A DNA stretch of 64,000 nt from an uncultured virus (IMG/VR IMGVR_UViG_3300028586_000757) (Duplodnaviria; Heunggongvirae; Uroviricota; Caudoviricetes): IMG/VR virus record IMGVR_UViG_3300028586_000757. One strand, 5' to 3'. The notes beneath the pieces are model-generated. The model saw nothing but the letters and a program-made list of their open reading frames with translations, did not search any database and was not told the DNA's origin. Positions 2,262-57,234 of the stretch are shown piece after piece (within the stretch, counting starts at the first letter, position 1; every line of letters starts with the position of its first letter). Both the position numbers and the translations under genes were made by a program.

Positions 2262-3023
2262 TTACAGGCCCCAGGCCTTCGGCAGCTTTGCAATCATGCG
2301 TGCGTGGGCTTCATCGGTTCGCAGCCGGTTTTTCGGAGCCAGTTCGCGCATGTATTCAACAAGTTGTTCCGAACCAACCTCTGCCGGCGTGCTTTCTTGC
2401 GGCCGTTGCATCATAAGTTCGACCAGGTCATCAGCTTTGCAACGCTTGTCTCGAGCGGAGCCTCGAATCATTGAACTCTTCTCACAGTTCTCCCCGAGTT
2501 CATATCGCAGGTCCAGAACGCGCGCATCATCCAACTGCATCACCAGCCAGTTGATATCTTCCAGAGCACTCCAGCTAAGGTAGCTGGGATTCCGCGCTGT
2601 GGTAGCTTGGTGGCGAGCCGGATTGGCCAGAAGAAGCTCACGCAGAGCTTGCATAGGCAGTGCGACCACATCACCGGAGGGGAACCAAGACAGCAGCCAG
2701 GCGGTCTTACTGGTAAACATCCAGCCAGGTTTCAAGGTCGGCCGGTCAACAGAGACCAGCTCCAGTGCGATACGCCCGGTAGCGTATTTCTCAAACTTGT
2801 TCTCCGCTCGCACGTACATCCCCTGTCGTTTTGGCAGGTTTGGATACAGGAAGAAGTCGTTCCCGTTCTTCTGTTCTGTTTTTACCTTGGACACGTCTTG
2901 AACGTGGTGAGGGTAAAAAAGCAATTCAACCTTCGGTTCGCAGGATGCCTCGTCATCCAGACGGGCTTGAAACGGATGCAAACGAGAGGCGGCAGGGGTA
3001 GCGGTAGCGGTAGCGGTGGTCAT
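2262..3023 (-). CDS. Hypothetical protein, possible PD-(D/E)XK nuclease-like fold
   Basis: 253-aa ORF; QKNGNDF...ENK...TGRIALELVS...PGW pattern resembles phage-type restriction-endonuclease-like proteins. Confidence 0.5.
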   Translation of the reverse strand: MTTATATATPAASRLHPFQARLDDEASCEPKVELLFYPHHVQDVSKVKTEQKNGNDFFLYPNLPKRQGMYVRAENKFEKYATGRIALELVSVDRPTLKPGWMFTSKTAWLLSWFPSGDVVALPMQALRELLLANPARHQATTARNPSYLSWSALEDINWLVMQLDDARVLDLRYELGENCEKSSMIRGSARDKRCKADDLVELMMQRPQESTPAEVGSEQLVEYMRELAPKNRLRTDEAHARMIAKLPKAWGL

Positions 3024-14724: not shown

Positions 14725-15231
14725 TCACGCTATGGTTGAAATTATGCCACCAACTGTCTGCGTAATCTTTCGCGACAGAGGCGCTTGGTTCTCCGAACGC
14801 TGCATTACGCGATATGCCTCGCACGCAGCCAGGACCTGGGCTTGGTCCACACGACGTGCAGCGAGCTGATTGTCTTCCTGACTTGTCGCGAACAGGCTTG
14901 ATTTCTCGAGCTTCTTAGCGCTGTCGTTCGTGCTCAGCACCAGACTCCCAACATCCGTCTCTTTCTGCTTACTGTATAGCCCTCCACTGTCACCTATATC
15001 AGCTTTCATTGCCAACTTTTGCGCGCGCAAGTTGGAGTCCTGGAGCGACACTACCGACGCGGTGTTCGACAGCTTTTCAGGAATATGAAGAACACTCAAA
15101 ACTTTTTTAGTTGCGTGGTCGGCATATGTGCGAGCGACTTCGCCGGCAGATGTTGCAATCTGCACGTCTTGATGAACAGGCTGTCGTATGCGGGATGCGG
15201 ACGGCAAGATTACAGTTGGCATGGCAGACAT
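14725..15231 (-). CDS. Hypothetical protein
   Basis: 168-aa ORF in a co-oriented cluster. Confidence 0.5.
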   Translation of the reverse strand: MSAMPTVILPSASRIRQPVHQDVQIATSAGEVARTYADHATKKVLSVLHIPEKLSNTASVVSLQDSNLRAQKLAMKADIGDSGGLYSKQKETDVGSLVLSTNDSAKKLEKSSLFATSQEDNQLAARRVDQAQVLAACEAYRVMQRSENQAPLSRKITQTVGGIISTIA

Positions 15232-15256
15232 AACAAAGTTTTCGACAGATGAGTGA

Positions 15257-15604
15257 TTAAGTCGGGCAGAGCTTATCTACCAGCTGCTCGACTTGTGCGG
15301 TTAGGCCACGACGGCACAACTGAGCCGTCATGGCTATCAGTGTGTGTCGACTAATCGTCTCAACGGTAATAACGGACTGCCGCTGTAGAACCGCGTCAAG
15401 GCTATGACAGATTTCCACAAAAACCTGCGTTTCAAGCAAATCCGATTGAAGCGGACGAACCAGCACGCCCAAGAACTCGTTAGCACTACAGGCTTTAACG
15501 AGTCGTGTTCGCCAATGTGTAATGAAGGGCAGCAGCTCAACGCCATAGCGGCGGAGCGCCTGAATGTCATTTCGTGGGTGGGTCATGGTGACGGGGCGTA
15601 TCAA
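15257..15604 (-). CDS. Hypothetical protein (start uncertain)
   Basis: ORF in a co-oriented cluster. Confidence 0.45.
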   Translation of the reverse strand: MIRPVTMTHPRNDIQALRRYGVELLPFITHWRTRLVKACSANEFLGVLVRPLQSDLLETQVFVEICHSLDAVLQRQSVITVETISRHTLIAMTAQLCRRGLTAQVEQLVDKLCPT

Positions 15605-15697
15605 AAGTGAAGTAGGTCACAGCGCCCCGGCAGCAGTCGTGTGGAGCACTTAGCTATATCTAAGTGAGTGCATCACATTTATCCTAAGGAGGTCATT

Positions 15698-16171
15698 ATG
15701 CGTATTCCGTTTACTGCTGCTATCAGTCTCATCATCGTCGGCTTCTTCCGTTTGCTTGGATGGCTGGTTTCCGATGCCCCACTGGCATTGGGCACGCTCT
15801 TCCAATCAGAACCAGGGGTGACCTGGTTTGTATGCATGGTCCCCGCCGTGCTGGGCTGCGTGGCGCTGTGGCGGCTCTTCAAGCTGATGGAGCGGCCAGC
15901 GATGATGCTCACCCTCGCACAGGGCGCCTCGGCGTTAGCGCACCATCACAAAGAGCGTCAAGCAGCAGTGCAGGCAACGGCGTGCTATGCGGTCTCAGCG
16001 CTGCTACTGTCGATGATGAAGGCAGGACAACCCGACATGCCGGCTTCGGTCACCTGCAGTGCCGTGTTCGTGTACTGCTCGTTCGTCATTTCCAGTGCAC
16101 TGCTCGTCTTGGCAGTGTCGCGCGTGCGTAAAGTCACCAGGTACGTCGAACGTAACCCGATTTTTGGTTGA
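15698..16171 (+). CDS. Membrane protein (about 4 TM)
   Basis: TAAGGAGG RBS; hydrophobic segments; terminator at ~16191-16219. Confidence 0.75.
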   Translation: MRIPFTAAISLIIVGFFRLLGWLVSDAPLALGTLFQSEPGVTWFVCMVPAVLGCVALWRLFKLMERPAMMLTLAQGASALAHHHKERQAAVQATACYAVSALLLSMMKAGQPDMPASVTCSAVFVYCSFVISSALLVLAVSRVRKVTRYVERNPIFG

Positions 16172-16290
16172 TTCAAACAACCCCTGTTCCAAGCGCCTCC
16201 TCAGTGAGGCGCTTTTTTTATGGTTGACAGGTGTGACCTGTTGAACACCGGTGCCTATACAAGGTAGGTCAACTATTAGGAACTACCATC

Positions 16291-17103
16291 ATGGTCCGTT
16301 CGTTCTTCAAAGGTATTCTGCTGCTGTGTTTCGTTGTGTTCGCTTTCGTGCAGTTTTCTGCACAAGCCGCTGAAGTGGTCAATCTCGACACTGACGCACG
16401 CTTTAGCGACGATGTCGCCAACGCTGGTATGTATCATCCCGATGCGTTCCAGCATGCCGGTGTGTATCTCACCCAACCGGTCTCTCCCACCAAAGAAGTT
16501 GTGGTCTTCGTGCACGGCGCGAAGGGTCACCCTGGCAACTTCCGTGACATCGTTCGGGCACTCGATTCCAGCCGCTACCAAGCCTGGGTGGTCTACTACC
16601 CATCGGGCAGCCGTATGGCTGACACCAGTGCGATGCTTGCACAGGAAGTCAGCGAGCTGGCACGTGCACATGGCATCTCCCGTGTCCAAGTGTTCGCGCA
16701 CAGCATGGGTGGCCTGGTTGCATGGGAAATGACGCAGAAACTGCGCCATTCCATGGAAGTGAACGACATCGTAACCGTGGCTACGCCATGGAACGGTCAC
16801 TGGGCCTCGCGCCTGGGTGTCATGCTCTCGCTGAATCCAGTACCAAGCTGGTCGGACCTTGTTCCCGACAACGACAAGCTTCGGAAAATCTGGACAGACA
16901 AGGACCGTCCTCAGCACAAGCTCGTATTTGCGCTCACGCGTGACGACGACAGTGCTTCGGGTGACGGCACCATCAGCAAAGACAGTCAACTCTCTGGCGC
17001 GATGGTTGCGCAAGCAGATGAGGTCATCAAGCTTATCGGGACTCACACCTCGGTTCTTCACGAAGAATCTTCGGTTCGCGCTCTCGTAGCTCTTCTGAAC
17101 TGA
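16291..17103 (+). CDS. Secreted alpha/beta hydrolase (esterase/lipase-like)
   Basis: VVFVHG, AHSMGG nucleophile elbow, TVATPWNG, GDGTI, H; signal peptide. Confidence 0.85.
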   Translation: MVRSFFKGILLLCFVVFAFVQFSAQAAEVVNLDTDARFSDDVANAGMYHPDAFQHAGVYLTQPVSPTKEVVVFVHGAKGHPGNFRDIVRALDSSRYQAWVVYYPSGSRMADTSAMLAQEVSELARAHGISRVQVFAHSMGGLVAWEMTQKLRHSMEVNDIVTVATPWNGHWASRLGVMLSLNPVPSWSDLVPDNDKLRKIWTDKDRPQHKLVFALTRDDDSASGDGTISKDSQLSGAMVAQADEVIKLIGTHTSVLHEESSVRALVALLN

Positions 17104-17420
17104 TTCAAAGCCCGCACTCTGTGCGGGCTTTTCTTATTCCAGCAGCCTTAACTGAAGGCGGTTCGTGTCCTTACCACGCAGTGCCTGCGTAAGGACCTCG
17201 AGAAGGACGCCAGACTCGTTCGAGATAGGGTGCTAACTGTGTGAGAAGGGCAACCTGCCCCGGTCAGCCAGCAGAACACCATCCTTACCACGAGAAACTC
17301 GAGGGCCCTACGTGTCGTGTGCAGCGCGGTGCGCAGAGTCTGAGCAATAGCCTGCACGAACTGTGTGCAAGACAGGGGAGAGCATGCGGCCGCCGTCGGG
17401 CAAGGTTGGTTCTGGATGTG

Positions 17421-17600
17421 CTGTTTACTTACCTGTTAATTTCCTGTTTAACAGGGGAATTTACGGCTCAAATGAAGGTTAATTTTGTTTATTAACAGGG
17501 GATTCATTTCGTAAGTTATTGATTTCTATTAACATTTTCAATGTTACTTTCATTCCGAGCTAACTCTCATTATCGTAAATTATTCGCCTCGCTCGTCGCG
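17421..17600. other. AT-rich segment with TTAACAGG direct/inverted repeats (candidate unwinding or initiator-binding element)
   Basis: CCTGTTAA 17432-17439, CCTGTTTAACAGG 17443-17455, TTAACAGGGGA 17492-17502; visibly AT-rich compared with flanks. Confidence 0.55.
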
Positions 17601-17651
17601 CGGCCTCTTCGCTTTGCTTCGGCCCGAGGGCCTCAGCGCTCAGAGCGACCT

Positions 17652-18187
17652 TGCAGGTCTGGTACGTCCGCACAAAAAGCCCGTTTTGCCCGGGCCATTA
17701 GCCTGGCGCCTACCCCGTCTCACGGCGTTCGACGGCGGTAAGAGCACGGGGCGTCGGCCGGGGGCAGACGGCCCGCGAGCGGGCCTTGGTTTGAGCGCGA
17801 GGGCGCCGGCAGTCGTAGGAGCACGGAGCGTCGGGGCAGGGTGGGAGCCGCGCAGGGCTGCTGCATGTCGACGGTCTGGGAGAGCATTGCAAGCAAAGCA
17901 GGGGCCTTCGGGGCGGGGAACGAGCTCGGGGTTTCTGGGCGCCGGCAGGCGTGAGGGAGCTCCCGTGGGGGTCGAAAGCGCCGCATTGTTGTGCAGGTCT
18001 GATGCGCTCCTCCCGTTGGGCCGAAGGTCCACGGGTAATAGTTTGGCCCCTACCCCGTGGCACGCCGTCTTGAAAAAAGATGTTCTATGCAGGTAGAAGT
18101 TGTTCTTGTTATGCAGGTCTGGTGCGCTCGAGCCCAAAGCCCGGAAGCCCTGCGGGGCAAGAGTGTGCGCTACCCCGTCTCACGGCG
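17652..18187 (+). repeat. Three bipartite units TGCAGGTCTGRTRCG-N43-CTACCCCGTNNCACGSCG
   Basis: Left boxes start at 17652, 17992, 18112; right boxes at 17710, 18050, 18170 (offset 58 each time). Confidence 0.85.
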
Positions 18188-18228
18188 GGCAGGCAATGCT
18201 GAGAACAAAACGAAGGGGCGCATAGCGT

Positions 18229-19008
18229 CTCTTGGCGCTCTCTTGTCCGCAGGTCTGACGCAAGGGTAGAAGTGTGAGGAGGGCGGGACCTCGCAGGGCG
18301 CTTAAGCCTGGCGGGAGCCTTTAAGCGCGCACGGCGGGTAGAAGGCGGGCCTACGTTCTCTTGGCGCTCTCCTGTATCTGAAGACAGGGCGGCTTTCGCG
18401 GGTCTTGTACGCATTGCCGGAGGCTTTACGGCATGCTTGCGCTCTACGGCTGCCGCAGCGGAAAAAGTGACCGAGCGCTCACAATTGGGGCAAGCTACCG
18501 GGCTCTTCGGACCGAATATGACCGAGCGCTCACATTTCTGAGCTCGCCTTACGGCCTCTTGGCGCTCTCCCGTTGGGTAAGACTATTCGGCACTACGCGG
18601 AGCTGTCTCTTGGCGCTCTCCTATGTTTGGGTACAAAGACGAAATGCTTTTGGGATTCCCTGCGGGCCTTGTATGGGTTGCCGCAGGCTTATCGGTTGCT
18701 GGCGCTTCTTGGCGCTCTCCTGGCGATACAGCCGTCAGGCGTGGGGCGGTCCTGGGGCACGCGGGGCTGGCCTTGGTCTCTTGGCGCTCTCCTGTATCTG
18801 GACACGACTCAGGCTCTTGGCGCTCTCCTGTTGCTACGTCGCCTCGTGTCTCAACACCCTCTTGGCGCTCTCCTGCACTTGAGCTTTGCTATGGGGCTAC
18901 TCCCTCTTGGCGCTCTCCTGCCTTTGTGCTTCTAGTGGGGGCCTAAGGCTCTTGGCGCTCTCCTGTATTCATAGCGTGCGGAGCTCTCACTGTTTCTTGG
19001 CGCTCTCC
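18229..19008 (+). repeat. Array of 11 direct repeats YTCTTGGCGCTCTC(C) with unique spacers (iteron/centromere-like)
   Basis: Starts at 18229, 18358, 18556, 18607, 18706, 18778, 18814, 18859, 18904, 18949, 18994; last five at a 45-bp period. Confidence 0.9.
18468..18534 (+). repeat. Direct repeat pair TGACCGAGCGCTCACA
   Basis: Identical 16-mers at 18468-18483 and 18519-18534. Confidence 0.85.
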
Positions 19009-19161
19009 GGCTGGAACATCTTTCCCTTGGGGAGATGCAGCCCTGTCTTATGAAGGCGGAGGTTACTTGCCAGGGATTTCTTGGGAAAAAGTTTCTTTGG
19101 GGGGCAGGGGGCGTTTGTATAGGTTGGCGTTTCTACAGGTGAGCACATATGTGATGGAGGC

Positions 19162-20775
19162 ATGATGCTGAACTTGATGTTGGACTTGGAAGCGTTCGGA
19201 CCGCGGCCGCGGGGCTTGATTGTTTCGGTCGGGGCGGTTGTATTTGATGACGAGTTGCCACCGGAGAGCTGTGTGCTCGAAGGGGAGACGAACCGATTTT
19301 ATGGGGTGCTCGATTACCAAGACGCGCAGGATGCGCGGTTTGAAGTGTCGGGCGAGACGATGGCTTGGTGGGCGACCCAGGGGCCGGCGTTTGCGCAGCT
19401 CATGCTCGAGATGAGTACCAAGGGCGAGCGCCTTGATGCGCTGTTCGGCCGGTTGGCCACCTGGCTCGCGCGCTTCAAGGACACGCCAGTTCGCCACTGG
19501 TCCAATGCGCCGTCGTATGACGCGCTGATGCTCGAGACCACGTTCAAGGCGCTAGGTCTGGCCAGTCCCCTGTCGTACAAGACGGAGCGCGACTACCGCA
19601 CGATGATGGAACTGGCGCATGGCGCTGTGCGTCCGGATGTGCCGGCCGGTGGTGTACACAACGCGTTGTTTGATGCCATCGAGCAGGCCAAGCTGGCCAC
19701 GGCCGCCCTGCAAAAGTTGCGCAGTGGTCCGGCGGCGCCGCTGGTCATTGCTGGCTACCCGACTCTTGGCGCTCTCCAGGTTTCGGCACCTGATGTCGCG
19801 CAGGTAGTCAGCAACCCGGCGGTTAAAGTCATCGCCACGCCAGAGACTCTGGCTGCGGCGCAGCCACTTGGTCAGGCGAATGTTGCACCTTCGGCGCTTG
19901 GCGAGCGGGTAGAGCCTCCCCGCGCTTCCGGTGCTTCGGCATCCATGTCCGCGCTGATGTCTGGTGCGCAGTGTGACGTGAAATCGGTGACGGCAGTGGT
20001 GGCGCTGGACATCGACGGCGTGGTGCAGACGCCGGCGCTGCAGGACTGGCACGAGATGGAACATGCTGGCCCGCTCATCGAAATCCTGGAAGAGATGCCG
20101 CATGTGGGTATTCTTATCAGTGCAACTGACCGCGAGACCAGCTCCCCAGCAGACATCGTGGCAATGCTGCCCGAGAAGATTGCCAGCCGTGTTGTAGGCA
20201 TGACGGATGTGACCAAAGATGGCCGGGCCAATGGTGGTCGCCAGGCGGAAATTGATGCGTGGCTTGCTCGGCACCCACATATCCAGACGGTGGTGGCCGT
20301 GGACGACGAGGCCTTCCTGTTTGATGAGCACTGCCCGTACCTGGTGCAGACTTTCAAGTGGATGGGCTGGACCGAGGACACCACCCGCGCGGTGCGTAGC
20401 CTTCTCGCCGGCGAAGTTCCAGATGTCAAAGTGACGTCGACCCTGGGCCGCGGCTCGAGCTTGCCGGCCAACTGGGCGGACCCGGATGCGGACCTGGACG
20501 GGGACGTCGATGTGAAGTCGCTGCAGGAGAAGGCGCGCCGGGATGAGCAGGAACGACAGGCTTGGGCGAGTAACCCGGCGGTGGGCCAGCAGCAGAACCG
20601 CGACGTGCCGCGTAGCTCCCTGGTGCGCGATGCGATGGAAACTCCGTCCCTGATGGCGCCGAAGTCCGGCGCAAAGGATGCGCCTCGAGTTCTGAAAGAC
20701 CGCGGCCGCCAGTTAGAAGAGCGTAACTCCCGGCCAGGGGGATGGCGCGGGTTCCTAACGCGCGGCGGCAAGTAA
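19162..20775 (+). CDS. DEDDh 3'-5' exo(ribo)nuclease (Rv2179c/DUF5051-like) fused to HAD 'Swiss Army knife' phosphatase domain
   Basis: MLDLEAFG...SNAPSYD...RDYRT...HNALFDA; second domain ALDIDGVV...ISAT.R...R..EI..WL...VAVDD; GGAGG RBS. Confidence 0.8.
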   Translation: MMLNLMLDLEAFGPRPRGLIVSVGAVVFDDELPPESCVLEGETNRFYGVLDYQDAQDARFEVSGETMAWWATQGPAFAQLMLEMSTKGERLDALFGRLATWLARFKDTPVRHWSNAPSYDALMLETTFKALGLASPLSYKTERDYRTMMELAHGAVRPDVPAGGVHNALFDAIEQAKLATAALQKLRSGPAAPLVIAGYPTLGALQVSAPDVAQVVSNPAVKVIATPETLAAAQPLGQANVAPSALGERVEPPRASGASASMSALMSGAQCDVKSVTAVVALDIDGVVQTPALQDWHEMEHAGPLIEILEEMPHVGILISATDRETSSPADIVAMLPEKIASRVVGMTDVTKDGRANGGRQAEIDAWLARHPHIQTVVAVDDEAFLFDEHCPYLVQTFKWMGWTEDTTRAVRSLLAGEVPDVKVTSTLGRGSSLPANWADPDADLDGDVDVKSLQEKARRDEQERQAWASNPAVGQQQNRDVPRSSLVRDAMETPSLMAPKSGAKDAPRVLKDRGRQLEERNSRPGGWRGFLTRGGK

Positions 20776-20916
20776 CTCCCGCGCTATTGCTGAGCACAGA
20801 GTTACAAAGGAATTCCGCATGTTGCTGTAAGGAATCGTCCATTTATGTTATAATGTGGCGGTTCCTTTCACTTTTTAGATAGCGGAAAGAGGCCTCAGGC
20901 ACCAAGGAGAACCGAG

Positions 20917-21183
20917 ATGACAAGCAGCAACAAGGATATGGTACCAATCAAGTTCAAAGTGCTGGACTTTGTGATTTATGCATTTCGCGCAACGTTTATT
21001 GCAGGTCTAATAGCCGTGCCACTGGCGTCAGGTGTGCTCGAGTATGGCGGAAGTGAGAAAACTGCAATGCTGGCGGCGGGGGTATTCACAGCGCTCCTGA
21101 TGCGTCTTAAGTTATTCGAGAGCCCTGCGAAACAATCGCAGGTAGAGGCCTCTAAGCCTCAAGTAGCTGCGAACTCCCTGTAA
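20917..21183 (+). CDS. Small 2-TM membrane protein
   Basis: AAGGAG RBS; upstream TGtTATAAT at ~20845-20854. Confidence 0.7.
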   Translation: MTSSNKDMVPIKFKVLDFVIYAFRATFIAGLIAVPLASGVLEYGGSEKTAMLAAGVFTALLMRLKLFESPAKQSQVEASKPQVAANSL

Positions 21184-34687: not shown

Positions 34688-35908
34688 ATGACTCATGACC
34701 CGCGCACCTGTGCCTACTGTGGCAATATCGAAGCTGATGTTCAGCAGCTGATTCAGATGGCTGACAAGGCGAAATCGCTCATCTGCGATGTTTGCGTCGA
34801 CCAGCTTTCCGACTTCGTGCGCGAGTGCCGTGGTGAGGCACCGCTGACCCCGGCAGTGGCCGCGCCAGCGGGCAAGACGCCAAGTGCCATGGTTGCATTC
34901 CTCGACCAGTATGTCGTGGGCCAGTCCAAAGCCAAGCGTACGCTGGCCACCGCCGTGCACAACCACTACAAGCGCCTGCAGGCCGGTGAGCAAACTGGTG
35001 TTGAAATCGACAAGAGCAACATTTTGCTGCTGGGCCCAACCGGGACCGGTAAGACGCTGCTGGCCAAGACCATCGCGCGCACGCTGGACGTGCCGTTCAC
35101 GGTGGCTGATGCGACCAGCCTGACCCAAGCGGGCTATGTGGGCGACGACGTGGAGACCATTCTCCAGCGGCTCATTCAAGACGCCGGCGGCGACATCGAG
35201 AAAGCCCAACGCGGGATTGTCTTCATTGACGAAATCGACAAGATTGCCGCAGCCAAGTCCGGCCCGTCCATTACCCGCGACGTGAGCGGTGAGGGTGTCC
35301 AGCAGGCACTGCTGAAGATTATCGAAGGCGCACGCGTCTCCGTGCCGGTGTCGGGCAACCGCAAGACGCCCAACGGCCAGACTGACATGATTGACACGAA
35401 AGACATTTTGTTCATCTGCGCTGGCGCCTTCGTGGAGCTGCTCAAGAAGCTTAAAGCTCCTAAGGTGAACAAGGGCACCATCGGCTTCCTGGGCACGGCT
35501 GACGCGGTGGGCGAAGACAAATCGAAGGAAGTGACGCCGGAGCTGCTCTCGGACTATGGCATGCTGCCTGAGTTTGTCGGCCGCCTGCCCATTATCCAGG
35601 TTCTCGACGAGCTCGACGTCGATGCGCTTGAGCGCATCCTGGTTGAGCCGAAAAACGCGGTGGTTCGTCAGATGCAAGCGCTCCTGAAAATGGACCATGC
35701 TACGCTGGAATTCGAGCAAGGCGCCGTGCGCAACATCGCCGAGCAGGCGTACAAGCTCAAAACGGGTGCTCGTGGAGCGCGCAGTATTCTGGAGAAGCTT
35801 CTGGAGCCTGCCCAGTTTGAGGTGCCAGATACCCCGGGTGCGATGGTGACGGTCAAGGCTGACTTGACTGTCGACATTGAGATGCCAGCAATGAAAATGG
35901 CGGCGTAA
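34688..35908 (+). CDS. clpX: ATP-dependent Clp protease ATP-binding subunit ClpX (orphan, no clpP nearby)
   Basis: C4 zinc domain (CAYC...CDVC), GPTGTGKT, GYVG, DEIDK, RDVSGEGVQQALLK, IGF loop, TGARG. Confidence 0.95.
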   Translation: MTHDPRTCAYCGNIEADVQQLIQMADKAKSLICDVCVDQLSDFVRECRGEAPLTPAVAAPAGKTPSAMVAFLDQYVVGQSKAKRTLATAVHNHYKRLQAGEQTGVEIDKSNILLLGPTGTGKTLLAKTIARTLDVPFTVADATSLTQAGYVGDDVETILQRLIQDAGGDIEKAQRGIVFIDEIDKIAAAKSGPSITRDVSGEGVQQALLKIIEGARVSVPVSGNRKTPNGQTDMIDTKDILFICAGAFVELLKKLKAPKVNKGTIGFLGTADAVGEDKSKEVTPELLSDYGMLPEFVGRLPIIQVLDELDVDALERILVEPKNAVVRQMQALLKMDHATLEFEQGAVRNIAEQAYKLKTGARGARSILEKLLEPAQFEVPDTPGAMVTVKADLTVDIEMPAMKMAA

Positions 35909-38625: not shown

Positions 38626-39051
38626 ATGAAGCTCGAAGAACGTATGTTGCGGTCCGTGAAGCAGCGGGCGGGTAATGTCATCCTACGTGCCGAAGTGGCG
38701 CAGCTGGGAAGCCCTTCCCAAGTTTCAGAGGCATTGAAGTCGCTCCAGGCGAAAGGCGTGCTGGTGCGTATCGGAACAGGCGTGTATGCCAAAACCCGAC
38801 AGAGCTCGGTGACGGGTGCAACTGTCCCCGCCGGTAGCTTGGAGACCCTGGCAATCGAGACTTTAAAGAAATTGGGAGTCAAAGTGCTGGCAAGCAAGGC
38901 CGCCAAATCGTACAATTCTGGTAAGACAACCCAGATTCCTGGTGCGTTTGTCGCCAATACGGGTGGACGTCGCATTCGTAGGAAAATTGCGGTGGGAGGC
39001 CGTGCAGTTGTCTATGAGAACGATTTCGGAAAAACAACGGCAAGCGCTTGA
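38626..39051 (+). CDS. AbiEi-like (DUF6088-like) antitoxin / wHTH protein
   Basis: L..L..KGVLVRIGTGVY wHTH; TQIP; overlaps the downstream toxin; TTGACA-16-TATAGT at 38569-38596. Confidence 0.75.
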   Translation: MKLEERMLRSVKQRAGNVILRAEVAQLGSPSQVSEALKSLQAKGVLVRIGTGVYAKTRQSSVTGATVPAGSLETLAIETLKKLGVKVLASKAAKSYNSGKTTQIPGAFVANTGGRRIRRKIAVGGRAVVYENDFGKTTASA

Positions 39052-40066
39052 AGACTTGGCCGCGGAAGGCCTGCTTCGCGGACTTCCGGTACAAACTGCT
39101 GAGAAAGACATCCACATCACGGAGCTGCTCAAGGGATTGAGCGAGCTCCGTGTTTCACATGAGCACTTCAGTGACATAGATGTTCGGCGAGGGGAGGTTG
39201 TTCGCCAAGACCCGGGGATTCAGCTTGTTTTCGCGGGCGGGACGTGTCTGTCAAAAGCGCACGGGCTCATCCACCGAATGTCAGAAGATATTGACATCAA
39301 GGTGTTGCTGCTGCCGCCTGATAAGCCCTTAAGAAAGGGACGCACTGACCGTGTCCGGTTAGTAGCCCTACATGAAGCGATACCCCCGCTCTTGGACTCG
39401 CTTGGTTTTCCCTTGCTCGCGGCACCAAACGGAGAAAATCCCCACATCCGGAACAAGCACCGGTACTGCGAGGTCGGCGCCGGCTACCAGTCGGCCTATC
39501 CGCAGCTTCCAAGCTTGCGCCCAGAGCTTAAGCTCGAGCTCATGCAACGCCAACCGAGGCTTCCCTTGGAGACCCGTACGTTCGGGTACCTCTACGAATC
39601 GTTAGCGGGACTGAAGCTAAGCTCCCCTGTATCCATCGCATGCATATCCGTTGCTGAAACGACCGCTGAAAAGGTGTTGTCGTTATTACGTCGGTGCGCG
39701 TGTAGCTGGGACGGATATCAAACGAAAGGGGACCTAGACCCTGCCCTCGTTCGCCATGTCTATGACGTCGCCAAGATAGCGGAACTTGCTCCTGAGGCGT
39801 TGCCCGCGGCACGAGAGGTATTTCCTCAGCTTGTCATCAGCGACCGCGACGAATACGAGGGGCAGCACCCTGAATTCGACGCCGACCCGATTGGGGTACT
39901 TCGTCGCACTCTTTTGGCGGCCAGAGAAAATGGCAAGTTGAAGAAGCAGTACGTTGAGAACCTGCTCCCTCTGGTGTACGAGACAAGCGCTCCTGACTTT
40001 GAGCGGTCCTTTGACGTATTTGAGGCGGTAGCTCGCGACTTCCTAGACGGTGACCGAGGTCGCTGA
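39014..40066 (+). CDS. AbiEii/AbiGii family nucleotidyltransferase toxin
   Basis: EKD, FAGGTCLSKAHGLIHRMSEDIDI, AEK, RHVYD. Confidence 0.9.
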   Translation: MRTISEKQRQALEDLAAEGLLRGLPVQTAEKDIHITELLKGLSELRVSHEHFSDIDVRRGEVVRQDPGIQLVFAGGTCLSKAHGLIHRMSEDIDIKVLLLPPDKPLRKGRTDRVRLVALHEAIPPLLDSLGFPLLAAPNGENPHIRNKHRYCEVGAGYQSAYPQLPSLRPELKLELMQRQPRLPLETRTFGYLYESLAGLKLSSPVSIACISVAETTAEKVLSLLRRCACSWDGYQTKGDLDPALVRHVYDVAKIAELAPEALPAAREVFPQLVISDRDEYEGQHPEFDADPIGVLRRTLLAARENGKLKKQYVENLLPLVYETSAPDFERSFDVFEAVARDFLDGDRGR

Positions 40067-43268: not shown

Positions 43269-44549
43269 TTAGCCAATAGCAAGCTCCAGCTCGAGCGACT
43301 GCCGGCTCTCCTGAATCTCAGGCCAACTTGGCAGGTGCAGGTGATAGCCGGGCTGCTTCTCAAAACGGGTGGCGCCTCCAATCACGTATTCCAGCATGCA
43401 GTCCGTAGACAGCCAATGGCGGCCTAGCTGCTCTGCTGCATCAGCGGTGGTAAACGAGCCGCCGAAGGGGTCAACGACCAGGTCGCCTGGTTCCGACAAG
43501 AACTCAATCAAGAACTTGGCAAGCTTGAGCGGCATTGGCGCGCCGTGTACCGGCAGACCCAACGATTTTGCGAGCTTCTTGTAAGCCAGCTGCGCGGCGC
43601 AGCGGTGCCCGAACTCCAAGACGTTCTTTGGAATGCGGCCTTCCGTCGCGTTGCCGAAGCTTCCCTCCCGGATAGAGTAGGCGCCGTCCGAGAATTGGCC
43701 CGTGCGCTGTTCTCCGCCTTGATGAATCAGGGCGAGATGCCTTTCAGTGTGCTCCTGCAGCACGCGCCGGTTGTTCGACTTCACGCTGTGTGGGTCGTTC
43801 GTGAACCAATACACGGGCTCGTACGCGACATTGAGCTGCGTGCGGTCCTTGCTGGCGTACTGATACGGGCCTGGCGGCTTGGACTTGTTGACCCAGATGA
43901 ACTCGTCCATTTTGAACAAGCCCAGACGGTCGTGCAGCGCCAACACCAGACGTTCCCGATACAACGAGCGCGCGGGGGACTGTGGCATGAAGATGTCATT
44001 GCTCACGTTCAGTGCAATGCTTCCGCCCCGAACGAGGTTCTTGACGAGTGGCTCGAGCATTTTGCATACCCAATCGACGTACTCAGGTTCGGTCGGATTA
44101 CCGTATTTGCGGGCAGAGGCCAGCGGGTACGGCGGCGAGGTCAGCACGAGGGTAATCGGAGAATCGATTTTTGAGAACACCGAGTCGCAGCTACCCAGAA
44201 TGGCGATACCCAGTTTCGTCGAGAAGCCCAGGACAGAGACCGAGTTGCTGATACGGTTCAGGTCCTTGGCGGCCGGCTTTGTGAGCTGCCATACGCCGCG
44301 GTGGCCTTCAACGTGGTCCAGGATGCCGGCCGTTCGCAGGGTTTGTTGATACCAGCGAATTTTACGGTGGAACAGGTTGTGAGCAGCACCGCTTTTGCCC
44401 ACCGCATCCCGCCGATTCGCTTCTTCTTCGTCGATGCCGACGGACTTGGCGACCGTTTGGTACAGGTCTTTGTTTTCGATAACGCCGTCTGACGTCTCGG
44501 AGTACGCGTGCAATACGCTCGCGAACAGATTGAGCTGAGTAGGTTTCAC
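43269..44549 (-). CDS. Orphan site-specific DNA methyltransferase (N4-C/N6-A, beta class)
   Basis: TSPPY catalytic motif before DPFGGS SAM motif; N-terminal HTH-like extension; AGGAG RBS. Confidence 0.9.
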   Translation of the reverse strand: MKPTQLNLFASVLHAYSETSDGVIENKDLYQTVAKSVGIDEEEANRRDAVGKSGAAHNLFHRKIRWYQQTLRTAGILDHVEGHRGVWQLTKPAAKDLNRISNSVSVLGFSTKLGIAILGSCDSVFSKIDSPITLVLTSPPYPLASARKYGNPTEPEYVDWVCKMLEPLVKNLVRGGSIALNVSNDIFMPQSPARSLYRERLVLALHDRLGLFKMDEFIWVNKSKPPGPYQYASKDRTQLNVAYEPVYWFTNDPHSVKSNNRRVLQEHTERHLALIHQGGEQRTGQFSDGAYSIREGSFGNATEGRIPKNVLEFGHRCAAQLAYKKLAKSLGLPVHGAPMPLKLAKFLIEFLSEPGDLVVDPFGGSFTTADAAEQLGRHWLSTDCMLEYVIGGATRFEKQPGYHLHLPSWPEIQESRQSLELELAIG

Positions 44550-51813: not shown

Positions 51814-54800
51814 TTACTCGCGCGTGCAGGTCTGGAAGACCGATGTGGTAGTTCCGCTCATCACGAGAGTTCCGTTGGATGAGATAGCAACTCCTGTGCG
51901 GGCTGAAGAGGTTCCGCCGGACGCCCACATGTATGGCCAATTTGGCCGTACCGATGCATCGACCAACGCTAGCGCGTGAAGCTCAGCCTCGGTGCCCAAC
52001 CGCCAGCCCGATACGCCACCCGTTGTCATCGAGAGGCAGCCTGAATTGGAGATGTCCCAGGTGGTGGAGCCTGACGGCTTCGGCGTCCAGGCCCGGCCAC
52101 CTACTACCAGGGCGCCGCCTGGCGCAGTGACGGTCAGGGTAGCTGTTGCAGTGCCTGCCGCAAAATCGGCCGATTCTGCTTGGGTCACAGTAACCGCAAA
52201 TGCGCCTGTTGCGTTGATTGTGGCGGTGCTTCCTGCCACAGTCAGCTTAGCAGCTGATAGCGTAGTGGAATACGTCAGAGCTCCCGTGCTATTGGAACTA
52301 GCCGATAGGGCAACCGGTGCAATCCGGAGCGGATTGTATTGATACGACTGGGCCGGGATATTGAAGACAATGGTCGGCGCGCCCTTGGTCACCGTAAACA
52401 AAGCCGTTGCGGTGCTGCTACCGTAGAGGCCTGAGGCCTGCTGTACGGCAGTAAATGTCGCAGTTCCGCGGCCAGTAATCGTAACAGTATCTCCGGAAAT
52501 GGTGGCCACGGCGGGGTTATCACTCGAATACACGAATGTTCCCGGGCTATCTGACTTGGGAGGTGTCAAGGCGAAAGGGGCACTGCCGTAGGTTTTTGCA
52601 GGAACGGACCAGGCGCCCAGCGTAGGAGCTTTCGACAGCGCACTCGCTTGCAGGGTACGCGAGACGGAAGCACCCTTCGTTGATGTCGCGCTAACCACGC
52701 CGGACAGCGCTCCGTCGGTAGACGGCCTCACGTTCACGATAATGGTGCAAGCCGCGTTCGCCGAAAGAGAAGTGCCAGCTGCACACGTTCCGCCAGCATA
52801 GGTGAAGCCCGCACCGGAGACGGTTGGCGCCGCTTTGACGGTGTCTGCAATCGGGGCGGTATTTCGCAGCACGAAGGTGCGAGCAGTATCCGCGTTCACA
52901 GGCACAATACCGTAGTCTGCGCTAGGCGCAGCGTCGAACGTGAACGAGGGAGCCGGTGCCGAGCCTGTCAGCGCCAGGCGCACTGGTCCGTTGACAAGTG
53001 TCCCGGAAGACTCGAGAACGGCATCTATCAGCGTCCCTGGCGAAGCTGGAACATACTTTACGGTGATTGCGCATGTGCCACCTGGTGTGACCGTCACCGG
53101 CGCGCCGTTCGTACCGCAGGCGTTTGAGAGCAAGGACAAGCCGGCACCACTCACGGATGTGACCAGATTACGAACGGACGCGTCGCCAGTGTTCTTGAAG
53201 GTAAAGCTGCGCTGAGCAGATGTGCCCGGTTCTACCGTCCCGAAACTGGTCGAGGTAACAGCAGTCAACACACCAGATGCGGCTGTTCCCTTACCTGCCA
53301 AGTCAAAGTAATGCTTGCCACTGTCGCTCAGGAGGGCAACGCCCCCTGTGCGCGGGCCGCTCTGGCTCGGAGCAAACTGTAGGCTGAGCGTGCAGTACTC
53401 GCCGGGCTGCAGCACACTGCCGCAGTTGTTCGTCATGCGGAAGTCATCCGGGCCATCCAGGAGAGATAGCCCCAGAATGGTCAGTGGCCCCGTGCCTTTG
53501 TTGCTGAACTTGACGTTGCGCACCGCGCTTACCTGGCCGTACTCGGTGGCCAGGAAATTGATAGCGTAGTGGGTAAAACCATCTGGCGTCGCTACTGGCG
53601 TTACGGTGCCAGGCGACCCGTCTCCCGTGTCCGGAGTCGGGTCCGGAGCAATATCAGCGACCGGTTTAGTGCCTTGTCCCGACATGCTGATGAAGTAGTC
53701 GCCCAACGAGCTCGTAACCGCCCAGGTGCCTGCGCTACCGTTGGTTGATTTCGGCGTCATTTTGAGGGTGACCGTGCAGCTGGCGCCGGCTGCCAGGGAA
53801 TTACCGCAGTCGTTCGATTGCGAGAACTCGGTTTCGCCCGATACGATGCTGGCGCCCGTAATTTCCGCTTGCTTGTTCGTCGGGTTGCTCAAGACGACAT
53901 CGACAGTTGGAGCGGATTGCCCAACGTTAGTGGGCGCAAAGCGCACCGAAGTTGGCGACAACGTCAGTTTGGGCGCCGCACCTACGCCGTCAAGGGCAAC
54001 GCGTACTAGCGTCGAGCCATAGCCAACTGCAGTGAGTTCCCCGTGAAGAGTGCCCGCCGTTGTGGGGGTGAACCGGACGGTAGCCGTGCAGCTGGCGCCG
54101 GCGGCAAGCGTCGTTCCACAATTGTTGGATTGGTTAAATGCACTGCGGCCCGACACGACGTCAATACCGTCAAGGGGCAGCTCGTCCGTACCCCGATTGG
54201 TAATCGTGACAGACTGGTCCGGCGCGGACTCGTTCAGCCAGGTTGAAGGGTACTGGAGTGCAGACGGGGACGCTGCAACCGAGATAGCTCGGCCTGTGAC
54301 GTCCACGGTTGGCGAACCTGCGTTATCAGAAGTAATTTGCAGCGTTGCAGCAAAAGGCCCCGTGCTGTCAGGCGTGTACTGCAGCGATACCGTGCAGGAC
54401 TGCATCGACGAGAGCTTGTTGCCGCAGTCGCTTGAGTCCACGGCCAAGGCAGTTCCGGTTGACTGGAATGACAGTCCCGTCACCAAGACGTTTCCGGTAT
54501 TGGATAGGGTTACATTACGCACGGGCGTCGAATCAGGGAAGACAATGTTGCCAAATTGGATGCTTGCCGTGCTGAGCGAGAGGGCCACCTTTTGGCCTGT
54601 GCCGGTCAAGCTGATTGCGGTCGAATCCCCCGCTGCCGGCGTAACCCTCAGTTCACCCGAGCTATCTGCAGTTCCCGTTGGGATGAAACCAACGGATACG
54701 ATGCAGGAGCCGCGGGCTGGAATAGACGTTCCGCAGTCGTTCTCTTGCTGGAATACGTTTGGCGATGTCGTGATGGACTTGAGCCCCATCGCGATAGCGC

Positions 54801-57234
54801 CAGGGTTGGTCACTGTCACTGACTTGACCGCACGCTGGCCAATATCGACGCGGCCGAAGCCTAGGGAGGTGGGGGAGAGCGCCGGGCGGGCATCCTGTCC
54901 TTGGCCCGCGAGTGCAATATGGTATGTGCCAATGCTGCTCACGAGCGACCAGGTGCCGTCGAAGCCAGCTGCAGCCGTTGGCGTCATCTGGAGAGAGACA
55001 GTGCAGTTTGCGCCGGCGCCAAGCACCGTGCCGCAATTGTTCGACTGGCTAAAGACCGACTGTCCGCTGCTAATACTCATGCCCGTCAAGGCCACCGAAT
55101 TGCGGGTCGGATTGCTGAGCGTCACGTCAATTGGCTGCGACGGTTGGCGGATGTACGAGCTCGGGAACGCCACCGACGTGCGCGAAAGCGAAAGCCAGGA
55201 CGGTAGGCCCGTTCCGGTCAGCGGCACGTTCACCAAACCGGAGCCGTAAGCCGCTACGCTCAAGGCTCCGTTGGATGCGCCAGCAGAGCGGGGAACGAAC
55301 TTAACGGCCACCATGCAGCTGCTACCTGCTCCCAGGCTTGTGCCGCAGTTGTTGGCCTGCAGGTAGTCGCCTGCTGCGACGCTCACGCCGTCCAGAGGTA
55401 CCTCATCCGGGCCTGCGTTGGTGACAGTAACCGCTTGGTTGACGGTACTTTGGCCCACTTCAGTATCTTCAAACGTGAGGGATGTCGGCGAAGACGTCAA
55501 TTTGACGACTGCACCAGAGAGCGAGACAGTGGCGCTACCTGCATCCGAAAGGATTTGCAGGCTCGAGGAAATGACACCCAGACCGCTTGGGGTGTACCGC
55601 AGCATTAGAGAGCAGCTCTTGTTCGCGCCCAGGATAGCCGTGCAGTCACCGTAATCAATGGCCAGGCGAGAGTCATTGTTCGATACTGCCAGGCCGGTCA
55701 GCGGGATGTTTCCGCTGTTGACGATAGAGACCGAGCGGGACACGGTTCCAGATGGCCAAGGTAGGGCGCCGAGGCGAAGCGCGGTGGGAGAGACCAACAG
55801 CATGGCTTGCTGACCGACGCCTTCAAGCGCCAGGGGTGTAGAAGCACCTTCGCTGTCGACGCGCACTCGGCCGCTGCGTGCGCCCGCGGATTTGGGCGTA
55901 AAGGTGACTGTTACCATGCAAGATGCCTGAGGCGCAATGGTGTCGCCGCAGTCATTGGACTGCTGGTATACGTCGGAACTAACGTCGATGCCAAGGCTTT
56001 TTACCGTAATCGCTTTGGCGCTCGGATTGCTCAGGACGGCCGTCTTGGTGGCGCTTTGACCAACCATCACTTCAGCAAAGTTCAGCGTACTAGGCGAGAT
56101 AACTGGCACCGGCGCGTCACCAGCACCTTTGACGGTCCCTTGAAGCATCAGATGGCCGCGGACCTCTGCTTGTGCGCCCACTACCAGGTCATATGCTGGC
56201 GCTGTTCCCGCCTTAAGCGCGGTGAACCCGACATGCAGATTGCACGATGCGCCTATTTCCAGCGTCGAGGGACAATCACTGGAGACCGAAAAATCCGGGT
56301 TTGAAGCGAGCCCCGTCAGTTCCGCCGGCGCGGTACCCCGATTTGTCAGCACGGCAGTCTTGTTGGCATGAGCCCCGACATCGAGCGCGTCAAACTGCAA
56401 CGAGCTCGGCGAGAATGCCAAGACGGGTACGATAGCCGGGTCCTTGTTCACCTTGGCGTAAAAGGTAAGCGGGATTGCAGAGGTGCTCGGCAGCTCTGTT
56501 GCACCGACTCGCAAAGTCACGCTGTGTGTTTTCGGTACATACGAGGAGAAACTCGCAGTAACAGTGCAAGACGCTTTCTCGGGTAGTTGAGCAGGGCAGT
56601 CACTCGTAATGGAAAACGCGTCTTTAGATGTGAGGCCTGTCAGCGCGGCTGGCGCGTTGCCGGTGTTTTTTAGTGTTGCAGACGTGCTCGCTTGCGCGCC
56701 CGGGCCCAGCTCTCCCAGGTAGACGGGAGACTCACTCACCTGCAAGCGAGGCGCGATACCTGTGAACGGTTCTACGGTTGCCAGCTGCACCGCGACGGGT
56801 GCGTCGATTTCAGCTGCGCCAAGCGACAGGCTGTATCGAACGCCAGGCTGTACTGTCGTCGGGGTGACGGAGATAGTGCAGGAGCTAGAGGGTTTGAGCA
56901 GGGTGGGGCAATTGTGCTTTATTGCAAAATCGTCACTATCTCCGATGCTCGTCAAGGTGGCTGGGCGAAAGCCTGCATTTGTCAGCAACACATTCTGGCT
57001 TACCGGTGCTGCGTTCTCTTCTACCTCAAACTGCAAGATATCGGTAGAGACTAGCAGCTGCACTGGTTCGTCGTCGAGCTCCACATCACCATCACCCGCA
57101 CCCGGCGCCGTTTTGGTTGGCTTCAGGTCACGAAGGGGAATCCGATACTCCGTTGCCAGAACAGGCTGGATGGTCAGGATTCCCGCGAGAAGATGAGTGA
57201 TGAAAACGCTGAAGCGGTTATGGCGAAGAAACAT
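51814..57234 (-). CDS. Giant secreted adhesin: ~14 ASH/choice-of-anchor-D Ig repeats, two Big-like domains, C-terminal invasin/DUF1566-like lectin domain
   Basis: Signal peptide VLA; 14 counted L.F..V.VG...N.G...C...L..G.SC.V.V.F.P units; tip TW..S...C...WRLGTEAEL..L. Confidence 0.9.
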   Translation of the reverse strand: MFLRHNRFSVFITHLLAGILTIQPVLATEYRIPLRDLKPTKTAPGAGDGDVELDDEPVQLLVSTDILQFEVEENAAPVSQNVLLTNAGFRPATLTSIGDSDDFAIKHNCPTLLKPSSSCTISVTPTTVQPGVRYSLSLGAAEIDAPVAVQLATVEPFTGIAPRLQVSESPVYLGELGPGAQASTSATLKNTGNAPAALTGLTSKDAFSITSDCPAQLPEKASCTVTASFSSYVPKTHSVTLRVGATELPSTSAIPLTFYAKVNKDPAIVPVLAFSPSSLQFDALDVGAHANKTAVLTNRGTAPAELTGLASNPDFSVSSDCPSTLEIGASCNLHVGFTALKAGTAPAYDLVVGAQAEVRGHLMLQGTVKGAGDAPVPVISPSTLNFAEVMVGQSATKTAVLSNPSAKAITVKSLGIDVSSDVYQQSNDCGDTIAPQASCMVTVTFTPKSAGARSGRVRVDSEGASTPLALEGVGQQAMLLVSPTALRLGALPWPSGTVSRSVSIVNSGNIPLTGLAVSNNDSRLAIDYGDCTAILGANKSCSLMLRYTPSGLGVISSSLQILSDAGSATVSLSGAVVKLTSSPTSLTFEDTEVGQSTVNQAVTVTNAGPDEVPLDGVSVAAGDYLQANNCGTSLGAGSSCMVAVKFVPRSAGASNGALSVAAYGSGLVNVPLTGTGLPSWLSLSRTSVAFPSSYIRQPSQPIDVTLSNPTRNSVALTGMSISSGQSVFSQSNNCGTVLGAGANCTVSLQMTPTAAAGFDGTWSLVSSIGTYHIALAGQGQDARPALSPTSLGFGRVDIGQRAVKSVTVTNPGAIAMGLKSITTSPNVFQQENDCGTSIPARGSCIVSVGFIPTGTADSSGELRVTPAAGDSTAISLTGTGQKVALSLSTASIQFGNIVFPDSTPVRNVTLSNTGNVLVTGLSFQSTGTALAVDSSDCGNKLSSMQSCTVSLQYTPDSTGPFAATLQITSDNAGSPTVDVTGRAISVAASPSALQYPSTWLNESAPDQSVTITNRGTDELPLDGIDVVSGRSAFNQSNNCGTTLAAGASCTATVRFTPTTAGTLHGELTAVGYGSTLVRVALDGVGAAPKLTLSPTSVRFAPTNVGQSAPTVDVVLSNPTNKQAEITGASIVSGETEFSQSNDCGNSLAAGASCTVTLKMTPKSTNGSAGTWAVTSSLGDYFISMSGQGTKPVADIAPDPTPDTGDGSPGTVTPVATPDGFTHYAINFLATEYGQVSAVRNVKFSNKGTGPLTILGLSLLDGPDDFRMTNNCGSVLQPGEYCTLSLQFAPSQSGPRTGGVALLSDSGKHYFDLAGKGTAASGVLTAVTSTSFGTVEPGTSAQRSFTFKNTGDASVRNLVTSVSGAGLSLLSNACGTNGAPVTVTPGGTCAITVKYVPASPGTLIDAVLESSGTLVNGPVRLALTGSAPAPSFTFDAAPSADYGIVPVNADTARTFVLRNTAPIADTVKAAPTVSGAGFTYAGGTCAAGTSLSANAACTIIVNVRPSTDGALSGVVSATSTKGASVSRTLQASALSKAPTLGAWSVPAKTYGSAPFALTPPKSDSPGTFVYSSDNPAVATISGDTVTITGRGTATFTAVQQASGLYGSSTATALFTVTKGAPTIVFNIPAQSYQYNPLRIAPVALSASSNSTGALTYSTTLSAAKLTVAGSTATINATGAFAVTVTQAESADFAAGTATATLTVTAPGGALVVGGRAWTPKPSGSTTWDISNSGCLSMTTGGVSGWRLGTEAELHALALVDASVRPNWPYMWASGGTSSARTGVAISSNGTLVMSGTTTSVFQTCTRE

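Follow-up and report, generated by a model that had tools for sequence, protein, structure and literature searches.

The 64,000-nucleotide stretch of DNA examined here (hereafter the window) comes from an uncultured virus recorded in IMG/VR (IMGVR_UViG_3300028586_000757; Caudoviricetes). Between a terminator-like hairpin (17107..17131) and a gene starting at 19162, it contains a 2-kb gap without credible gene, and this gap houses three copies (units) of a non-coding element of about 76 nucleotides (nt), each composed of a left box (CCTYGCAGGTCTGRTRCG), a core of differing sequence, and a right box (CTACCCCGT-NNN-ACGSCG). All three units are located on the plus strand. Unit 1 (17652..17727) has its left box at 17652-17666 and its right box at 17710-17727, and scores 73.7 bits with a sequence-only covariance model of the element (R1). 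Unit 2 (17992..18067; 58.7 bits) carries a right-box variant (CCCCGTGGCACGCCG) that recurs in two units of the related loci described below (L127b and L132c). Unit 3 (18112..18187; 58.0 bits) is the last, and the similarity to locus L127 stops just beyond it, at 18193. The offset from TGCAGG to CTACC amounts to 58 nt in all three units (57 nt when counted from GCAGG), whereas the start-to-start distances are 340 nt (units 1 and 2) and 120 nt (units 2 and 3). A lone left box, matching the pattern exactly and lacking a right box, follows at 18249..18261 on the same strand. The sequences and positions of the units, their 58-nt offset, the 120-nt separation of units 2 and 3, and the isolated left box had been pointed out in a preliminary description of the region, and all of these were recovered as described.

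Neither box is a common word in the window. The left-box sequence GCAGGTCTGRYRC occurs exactly four times in the 64 kb (at 17653, 17993, 18113, and 18249), always on the plus strand, and seven matches are found when one mismatch is allowed, versus 0.93 expected, a number reached by none of 100 shuffled sequences. The 18-nt right box (CTACCCCGTSKCACGSCG) gives exactly three matches without mismatches, at 17710, 18050, and 18170; the corresponding expectation of 0.51 applies to a search allowing up to three mismatches, at which laxness three of 100 shuffled sequences also reach three matches. No fourth full unit was retrieved from the window by model R1, and no further copy by blastn. The right box is itself a small palindrome, as the preliminary description had noted, with arms and loop of 4+3+4 nt in units 1 and 3, although it is shortened to 3+3+3 nt in unit 2. 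Similarly, the variability of the core had to be qualified: the core sequences do differ, but they are not free, since units 1 and 3 are 73% identical over 78 nt (blastn) and several core positions are biased. A coding function of the unit was considered and rejected, as the ORFs (open reading frames) that overlap units have no Pfam family and the box spacing varies by one nt in either direction among the relatives, so that no single reading frame joins the boxes.

Relatives of the element were found in metagenome contigs. A tighter form of the pattern gave 14 exact matches at nine loci (L124 to L132) on seven contigs of 2.6-667 kb, and a relaxed scan of these nine loci raised the number to 20 units, hence 23 units with the three of the window. 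Model R1, searched over the window and the nine loci, retrieved exactly these 23 units plus two lone left boxes; lone left boxes similar to that of the window follow a unit in L129 and L131. In the ten clusters so defined, one to three co-oriented units are present, only in non-coding DNA. The box-to-box offset is 56 nt in one unit, 57 nt in 11 units, and 58 nt in 11 units, the spacing being held to within one nt in all 20 units on other contigs, which supports the fixed spacing as a selected property. Among the 20 non-redundant units, pairwise identity averages 0.83 in each box, against 0.38 for the core and 0.26-0.29 for the flanks, and is thus far from uniform. Neither of the two outcomes named in the preliminary description as refuting it, namely homologous loci with another spacing and a uniform divergence, was therefore seen. 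Moreover, all 23 units agree in nine left-box letters and in most of the right box, while the carrier contigs range in guanine-plus-cytosine (GC) content from 55 to 69%, indicating that the boxes have been held over considerable divergence. With boxes conserved and core and flanks diverged, the element is a product of selection, with two boxes and a fixed length, and not a decayed duplication. Within the core, the same 20 units show an A at position 24 (15 of 20), C at positions 29-30 and 37-39, G at positions 42-44, and an AARAG patch about 12 nt ahead of the right box.

Part of the region around the units is present in 15 public sequencing runs from 14 studies of soil, sediment, groundwater, and litter. 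One of these runs contains 0.96 of its words and is probably the source, and contigs from four other runs cover it at 80-99% likeness. Searches of plasmid and phage collections with the regions 17300-19200 and 17300-21000, in settings for near and for distant similarity, returned nothing. A scan of IMG/VR with the unit pattern gave three matches, all with the wrong span (57, 76, and 61) and taken as chance, and the same collection contained no match to a pair of 18-nt repeats, no relative of a 537-amino-acid neighbouring protein, and none of the profile of the relaxase-like protein described below. A loose-pattern scan of genome contigs yielded at least 120 loci, and none of those listed had the extra conserved letters at the right spacing; this does not imply absence of the element from species genomes.

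The preliminary description had offered a repeated structured RNA or a primase or single-strand initiation (ssi) type of site as possible identities. For the former, neither a consensus structure nor covariation or excess folding stability was found: RNAalifold returned no consensus pairs for the 23 units, and their mean folding z-score with RNA parameters was +0.23 on the plus strand and -0.22 on the minus strand. For the latter, which would depend on hairpins, no excess stability as single-stranded DNA was found on either strand, the mean z-scores with DNA parameters being +0.26 and +0.01, with none of the 23 units below -2 on either strand. The hairpin noticed in the core of unit 2 is real (-15.4 kcal/mol; z -3.2), yet it is not a common feature, as only four of the 23 cores, that of unit 2 included, fall below -1.5 when the central core is folded alone (mean z -0.40; p 0.15). 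Pairing between the unit flanks gave a mean z-score of -0.27; an enclosing stem between them looked convincing by eye in window unit 3 and in L127c, but was rejected as a general feature, given that only three of 23 units fell below -2. The 266-nt conserved block around unit 1 has folding z-scores of 0.06 (plus strand) and -0.56 (minus strand). Three mini-helices can be drawn within the unit (CCU/AGG, GGUR/UACC, and CCGU/ACGG) and are 92% pairable, without any compensatory change. A purine/pyrimidine switch across the units was also tried and dropped, as it is visible only at first units and not general (p 0.33; n = 22). Comparison with Rfam at gathering scores gave no match in 137,041 bases (the window and five loci), and with permissive filters only two weak matches in the region 15000-21000, both at the upstream terminator and none at the units. 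ARAGORN detected no tRNA gene in the 64-kb window and a single tRNA-Leu in the nine loci, away from any unit. The reading of the units as folded RNAs is therefore not supported. Another identity proposed in the preliminary description, the substrate of a two-site protein, may apply.

The units form part of a larger module with a recurrent order, which, like their orientation towards downstream genes, had not been noticed in the preliminary description. Upstream, a gene encoding a protein with an alpha/beta hydrolase fold (16291..17103, plus strand; Pfam Hydrolase_4 and Abhydrolase_1 above their cut-offs) is ended by the terminator-like hairpin mentioned above, which has an 11-pair stem and a T-run on the plus strand and is the sole weak Rfam-like match of the region. 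Next comes a perfect 24-bp palindrome with two 8-nt arms around an 8-nt centre (CCTGTTAA-N8-TTAACAGG; 17432..17455; one copy in the window), which is probably the operator of a dimeric regulator. Exact copies of it occupy the same relative place in L127 (8746-8769) and L132 (8285-8308), and by eye a variant with one mismatch is present in L125 and related ACTGTT/AACAGT repeats occur in L131 and L130. The palindrome is followed by an AT-rich zone (17456..17585, plus strand) with TTAACAGG half-sites (17492-17499) and a conserved TTGATT, then by a CT-rich leader of about 70 nt, the first unit, and finally the further units among strand-asymmetric short repeats. A conserved block of 255 nt (17586..17840, plus strand), comprising the CT-rich leader, unit 1, and about 110 nt beyond, is about 97% identical to L127, whereas the module outside it is about 50-75% identical; in other runs, contigs pile up to a greater depth over this block and break there, as is the case for multi-copy sequence. 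It includes, 43 nt past unit 1, a terminator-like GC hairpin followed by TTGGTTTG (17770..17785, plus strand), which is conserved in L127 with a loop change. Downstream of the gap, the first gene of a run of plus-strand ORFs (19162..20775) encodes an Rv2179c-like 3'-5' exonuclease domain together with HAD_SAK_2 (Pfam E-values 6.6e-29 and 2.2e-14). No protein is common to the window and the loci around the other clusters; the flanking genes are unrelated, indicating that the clusters are paralogous copies of a module in different settings.

The remainder of the gap is rich in repeats of other kinds. The sequence CTCTTGGCGCTCTCCTGT occurs in 12 same-strand copies versus 0.08 expected, 11 of them in 18229..19011 (plus strand) and the twelfth at 19763-19780, inside the exonuclease gene; the last five copies in the gap have a 45-nt period just before that gene. 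By eye, the repeat was not seen in the counterpart region of L127, and it thus looks like a fast-evolving repeat family, whose copies could be protein-binding sites on DNA or on leader RNA. Another sequence, TGACCGAGCGCTCACA, is present twice (18468-18486 and 18519-18537), 51 nt apart, and holds a palindrome (GAGCGCTC); judged from its sequence, it may represent a second operator-like site within the non-coding gap. In L126 (480-720) and L130 (8380-8620), the two units are separated by hairpin-like repeats in tandem, each about 22-24 nt long (GGCCCTGCGGTGGGCTGGGAG and variants), which differ between these two paralogous copies located on one 667-kb contig.

The clusters are oriented with respect to the genes that follow them. 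Nine of the ten are co-oriented with the next downstream ORF, the exception being L130, where the downstream ORFs are indistinct; since several clusters form orthologous pairs, about seven of the ten are independent. In L124, a terminator is followed after 35 nt by a unit and, 124 nt further, by the ATG of a run of four ORFs; in L128, a single unit precedes an ATG by 65 nt. In six blast comparisons between paralogous or distant clusters, similarity began 28-220 nt upstream of a left box and stopped 0, 0, +6, 0, +15, and +3 nt past the right box. A sigma-70 consensus promoter ahead of the first unit was not called at any of the four cluster heads scanned (window, L132, L131, and L125). Indeed, a scan for -35/-10 hexamers 16-18 nt apart found no such site in the window between 17000 and 19300, and in L128, L132, L131, and L125 none overlaps a unit, save for the separate promoter of a peptide gene. 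Consensus promoters are nevertheless used elsewhere in the same replicons, as promoters that match the consensus at 11 of 12 positions precede this small gene in L132 and L125. It encodes a conserved hydrophobic peptide of 27-35 amino acids (MSAI[DE].F...VLAQ...), has a near-consensus promoter and its own terminator, and is located in L125 at 2321-2419 (plus strand), in L129 from 3520 (minus strand), in L131 from 8443 (plus strand), and in L132 from 7399 (minus strand), directly after a unit in three of these four loci; the window lacks it.

A second neighbour is a protein of 297-325 amino acids encoded divergently from the clusters in L132 (8280-9257, plus strand), L131 (6824-7738, minus strand), and L125 (486-1379, minus strand). 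In the ESM Atlas, it is placed beside clusters annotated as 'replication-relaxation' (PF13814), with a feature score of 0.96 and a template modelling (TM) score of 0.63-0.70. A passage of PMC5357655 assigns PF13814 to the MOBC relaxase superfamily, and one of PMC3424549 to the PD-(D/E)XK families, usually fused to a helix-turn-helix (HTH) domain. The protein itself has no Pfam match even at an E-value of 0.1, a profile built from three relatives finds nothing in the PDB, and its predicted structure is poor (mean predicted local distance difference test, pLDDT, of 52.9). Its gene is followed by a topoisomerase III gene, and this pairing suggests that a large plasmid-like replicon has here a module for transfer or replication. 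A relaxase-like neighbour is present at four of the ten clusters (L125, L129, L131, and L132) and absent from the window.

Taken together, these observations tentatively favour a reading of the units as orientation-specific, promoter-like platforms on duplex DNA, recognised by a lineage-specific factor. The length of the core is fixed while its sequence and fold are not, which suggests duplex DNA separating two sites of protein contact. In addition, the orientation towards downstream genes and the end of conservation at the right box suggest an action on what follows downstream; the end of similarity at that box also indicates that upstream control DNA is conserved whereas the transcribed part is free. 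A tolerance of one base pair in either direction is typical of the spacing of promoter elements. We infer that the reader would be a protein on duplex DNA and the output transcription initiation. Each unit would then be a compact platform, different from sigma-70 promoters and spanning some 75-90 bp, about the size of a polymerase footprint, on which a lineage-specific factor or an alternative polymerase holoenzyme would contact the left and right boxes. In the core, the length would have to be fixed and some A-rich and GGG patches present, whatever the sequence otherwise, and transcription, or its control, would proceed rightwards. Firing from the three tandem copies of the window would reach the long repeat-rich leader and the operon of the exonuclease/HAD gene, and the conserved palindrome 200 bp upstream would serve a regulator as its operator. 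The invariant CGTC of the right box is preceded, at a distance of 17 nt, by a GG-AA patch, an arrangement that bears a weak resemblance to the -35/-10 layout of promoters read by extracytoplasmic function (ECF) sigma factors.

Several points weigh against this promoter-like reading. The -35-like GG-AA patch carries only about 3 bits; to our knowledge, there is no promoter class with two conserved boxes 43 nt apart; and a Pfam scan of 82 window ORFs revealed no sigma-factor domain. Units are rare, with three in 64 kb and all of them in one gap, and left boxes also occur without right boxes. In L128, an extended -10-like sequence (TGCTATAAT) noticed by eye, and not called by the scan tool, lies about 40 nt upstream of the unit, which, if it is real, would place that unit inside a transcript. 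Furthermore, all 20 one-sided changes in the three mini-helices are wobble-compatible on the plus strand (ten U-G and ten G-U cells), which is what an RNA reading predicts. Finally, no RNA run was among the public runs listed as containing the stretch.

An alternative, judged fairly unlikely, is that the units are assembly sites on DNA for plasmid functions, such as a relaxosome at an origin of transfer (oriT), replication, or partition, where a replicon-encoded DNA-binding protein would hold the two boxes and bend the A-rich core that separates them. The constant spacing around a drifting core is compatible with a spacer of bent duplex, the units are preceded by an AT-rich zone and a palindrome, several clusters can be present on one contig, and in L125, L131, and L132 the clusters adjoin, divergently, the protein that the ESM Atlas places near PF13814 (a lead only), with topoisomerase III next to its gene. 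Yet that protein lacks a Pfam or PDB-profile match and a good structure model, six clusters (window, L124, L126, L127, L128, and L130) have no such gene nearby, and the window shares no protein with the other cluster loci. Moreover, such sites would not be predicted to face downstream ORFs in nine of ten cases, GC skew does not switch consistently at the clusters, and spacing and size differ from those of iterons, with units of 17-22 bp phased at about 22 bp. The orientation of the clusters would also fit linear, unfolded two-box RNA signals in leaders or non-coding transcripts, read by a protein for processing, stabilisation, or control of elongation in the manner of nut/boxA. This idea, which we likewise regard as unlikely, also agrees with the wobble-compatible changes, the unit downstream of the -10-like sequence in L128, the richness of the clusters in strand-asymmetric short repeats, and, by eye, a conserved CT-rich leader before first units and small hairpins that differ in their loops and, in L132, in their stem letters. 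Against it, no promoter was called upstream of the scanned clusters, the L124 unit comes directly after a terminator, consensus pairs and compensatory changes both number zero, z-scores are near zero, and an unfolded 43-nt RNA spacer would have no reason to hold its length to within one nt.

That conservation spans exactly the left to the right box and then stops, with tandem, co-oriented copies of constant length and a GC hairpin in about a third of the cores, could also be explained by short RNA genes, or precursor fragments, some 72-76 nt long, whose ends stay constant while the middle drifts. This is improbable, as no T-run terminator follows the right box (in the window sequence and in scans of the window, L128, L132, L131, and L125), nothing resembling a promoter is conserved upstream of non-first units (flank identity 0.29), and excess folding stability is absent. 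In addition, orthologous cores drift like neutral DNA, which argues against selected guides or seeds; by eye on the alignment of the window with L127, the cores of units 2 and 3 are about 64% and 50% identical, respectively. A guide-RNA function was rejected separately, given this gradual drift and the fact that the cores match nothing else in the window. Of comparably low probability is a more speculative proposal, namely that the clusters are regulator-controlled arrays whose ruler-defined RNAs would be measured out to about 72-76 nt by an effector of these ORFan-rich replicons, the 5' and 3' handles being constant and the middle free to evolve. Decaying tandem duplicates without a function of their own are exceedingly improbable: units 1 and 3 are still 73% alike, but the identity of 0.83 in the boxes versus 0.26-0.29 in the flanks over 20 non-redundant units, the nine left-box letters invariant in 23 of 23 units, and a spacing held to within one nt stand against such decay.

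The element was also compared with known systems. Early phage promoters occur in tandem, as in T7 with its three closely spaced A promoters with ordinary -35/-10 elements; the clusters resemble these in having two or three co-oriented signal copies, spread over a few hundred bases, where a long same-strand gene run begins, but differ in lacking the sigma-70 consensus and in having conserved boxes 43 nt apart. ECF-sigma promoters combine a GGAAC-like, AAC-containing -35 element, 16-17 nt of spacer, and a CGTC-like -10 element. The units share with them the invariant CGTC of the right box, the GG-AA patch 17 nt upstream, and a low copy number per replicon; unlike in ECF promoters, the patch (about 3 bits) lacks the C, the 19-nt invariant stretch around CGTC and the left box have no counterpart, and no sigma gene was found among the 82 scanned window ORFs. 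Sigma-54 promoters have GG and GC doublets exactly 10 nt apart, and this class was rejected by eye, as in each of the TGGCAC-like variants (window unit 2, L127b, and L132c) either the GC, the GG, or the spacing is missing, and the common right box lacks the motif.

Among plasmid sites, P1 parS has a bent centre, bound by IHF, and boxes of two different kinds on each side of it. The units are alike in being composite sites of about 75-80 bp with different end boxes and a centre that matters for geometry over sequence, but no ParA/ParB genes were seen here, the units are oriented with genes, and the sequences are unrelated. The ssi and Frpo sites of plasmid leading regions, which depend on long stable hairpins in single-stranded DNA, are likewise repeated, co-oriented, non-coding elements before genes, and in the plasmid-like DNA considered here one type of cluster adjoins a relaxase-like gene; unlike such sites, the units form no stable DNA hairpin (0 of 23 below z -2). 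Iterons of plasmid replication origins (oriV) are direct repeats of 17-22 bp phased at about two helical turns, beside an AT-rich stretch and a rep gene. The window does contain a stretch rich in AT. Its units measure 76 nt and their spacing is irregular, a rep gene was not recognised among the window ORFs scanned, and there is no consistent skew switch. An oriT served by a MOBC-type relaxase would have a relaxase gene adjacent to it and a nick site; a relaxase-like neighbour (an Atlas lead) is present at four of the ten clusters and absent from the window.

As to RNA and recombination systems, OmrA and OmrB are paralogous small RNAs with conserved ends and a variable middle; the units share the adjacent, co-oriented copies, the conserved 5' and 3' parts, and the divergent centre, but have neither promoter-like or terminator features of their own nor a stable fold. 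Integron attC sites have ends that are inverted repeats of each other and vary widely in length; the units resemble them in their conserved ends and variable middle, in their direct orientation, and in a similarity that stops at the 3' end, but attC was rejected, as no inverted repeat pairs the left with the right box and the offset is fixed at 56-58 nt. An array of clustered regularly interspaced short palindromic repeats (CRISPR) was also discarded, as unit starts are 340 and 120 nt apart, the two boxes differ, and the sequence between units is not repeated. Indeed, no description of the element was found in Rfam, and among the matches listed the literature returned for the motif strings was unrelated, which is consistent with the preliminary statement that it is not a described element. 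It is most likely a protein-read cis signal with an unusual geometry, and not a folded RNA.

The replicons that carry the element are themselves almost wholly without annotation. In the window, about 15 of 82 ORFs submitted reach the cut-off of a Pfam family. Among them are a ClpX gene (34688-35908) that passes an NCBIfam equivalog cut-off and has no ClpP gene beside it, as well as genes for a DinG-like helicase (25-1632), an AbiEii nucleotidyltransferase (38942-40066), a Mrr_N-methylase fusion (43269-44549), and an 1806-amino-acid protein of Ig-like ASH/HYDIN repeats (51814-57234). Contigs as long as 1.46 Mb carry relatives of the 537-amino-acid protein. Either a very large plasmid-like replicon or some poorly known bacterium may be the carrier; among the matches listed, the literature on megabase extrachromosomal elements contained nothing attributable to this lineage.

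In these large replicons, of whose ORFs about four in five have no known family, the element is among the few strongly conserved features. A signal of 40 nt that is invariant while the GC content moves between 55 and 69% must be read by a conserved machine. If this proves to be an ordinary regulator, the value of the site would lie mainly in its use as a marker of the replicon family. If the ruler-defined arrays were true, they would constitute a new kind of RNA module, and a promoter class whose replicon-encoded machinery requires two boxes of 20 nt at a distance of 57 bp would be equally novel; two different boxes held 57 bp apart, to within one bp, are of interest for promoter architecture and for nucleoprotein assemblies alike. 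The reader, be it a sigma-like factor, a relaxase-like HTH nuclease, or an RNA-binding protein, would, if found, provide the first handle on the expression or the maintenance of these replicons.

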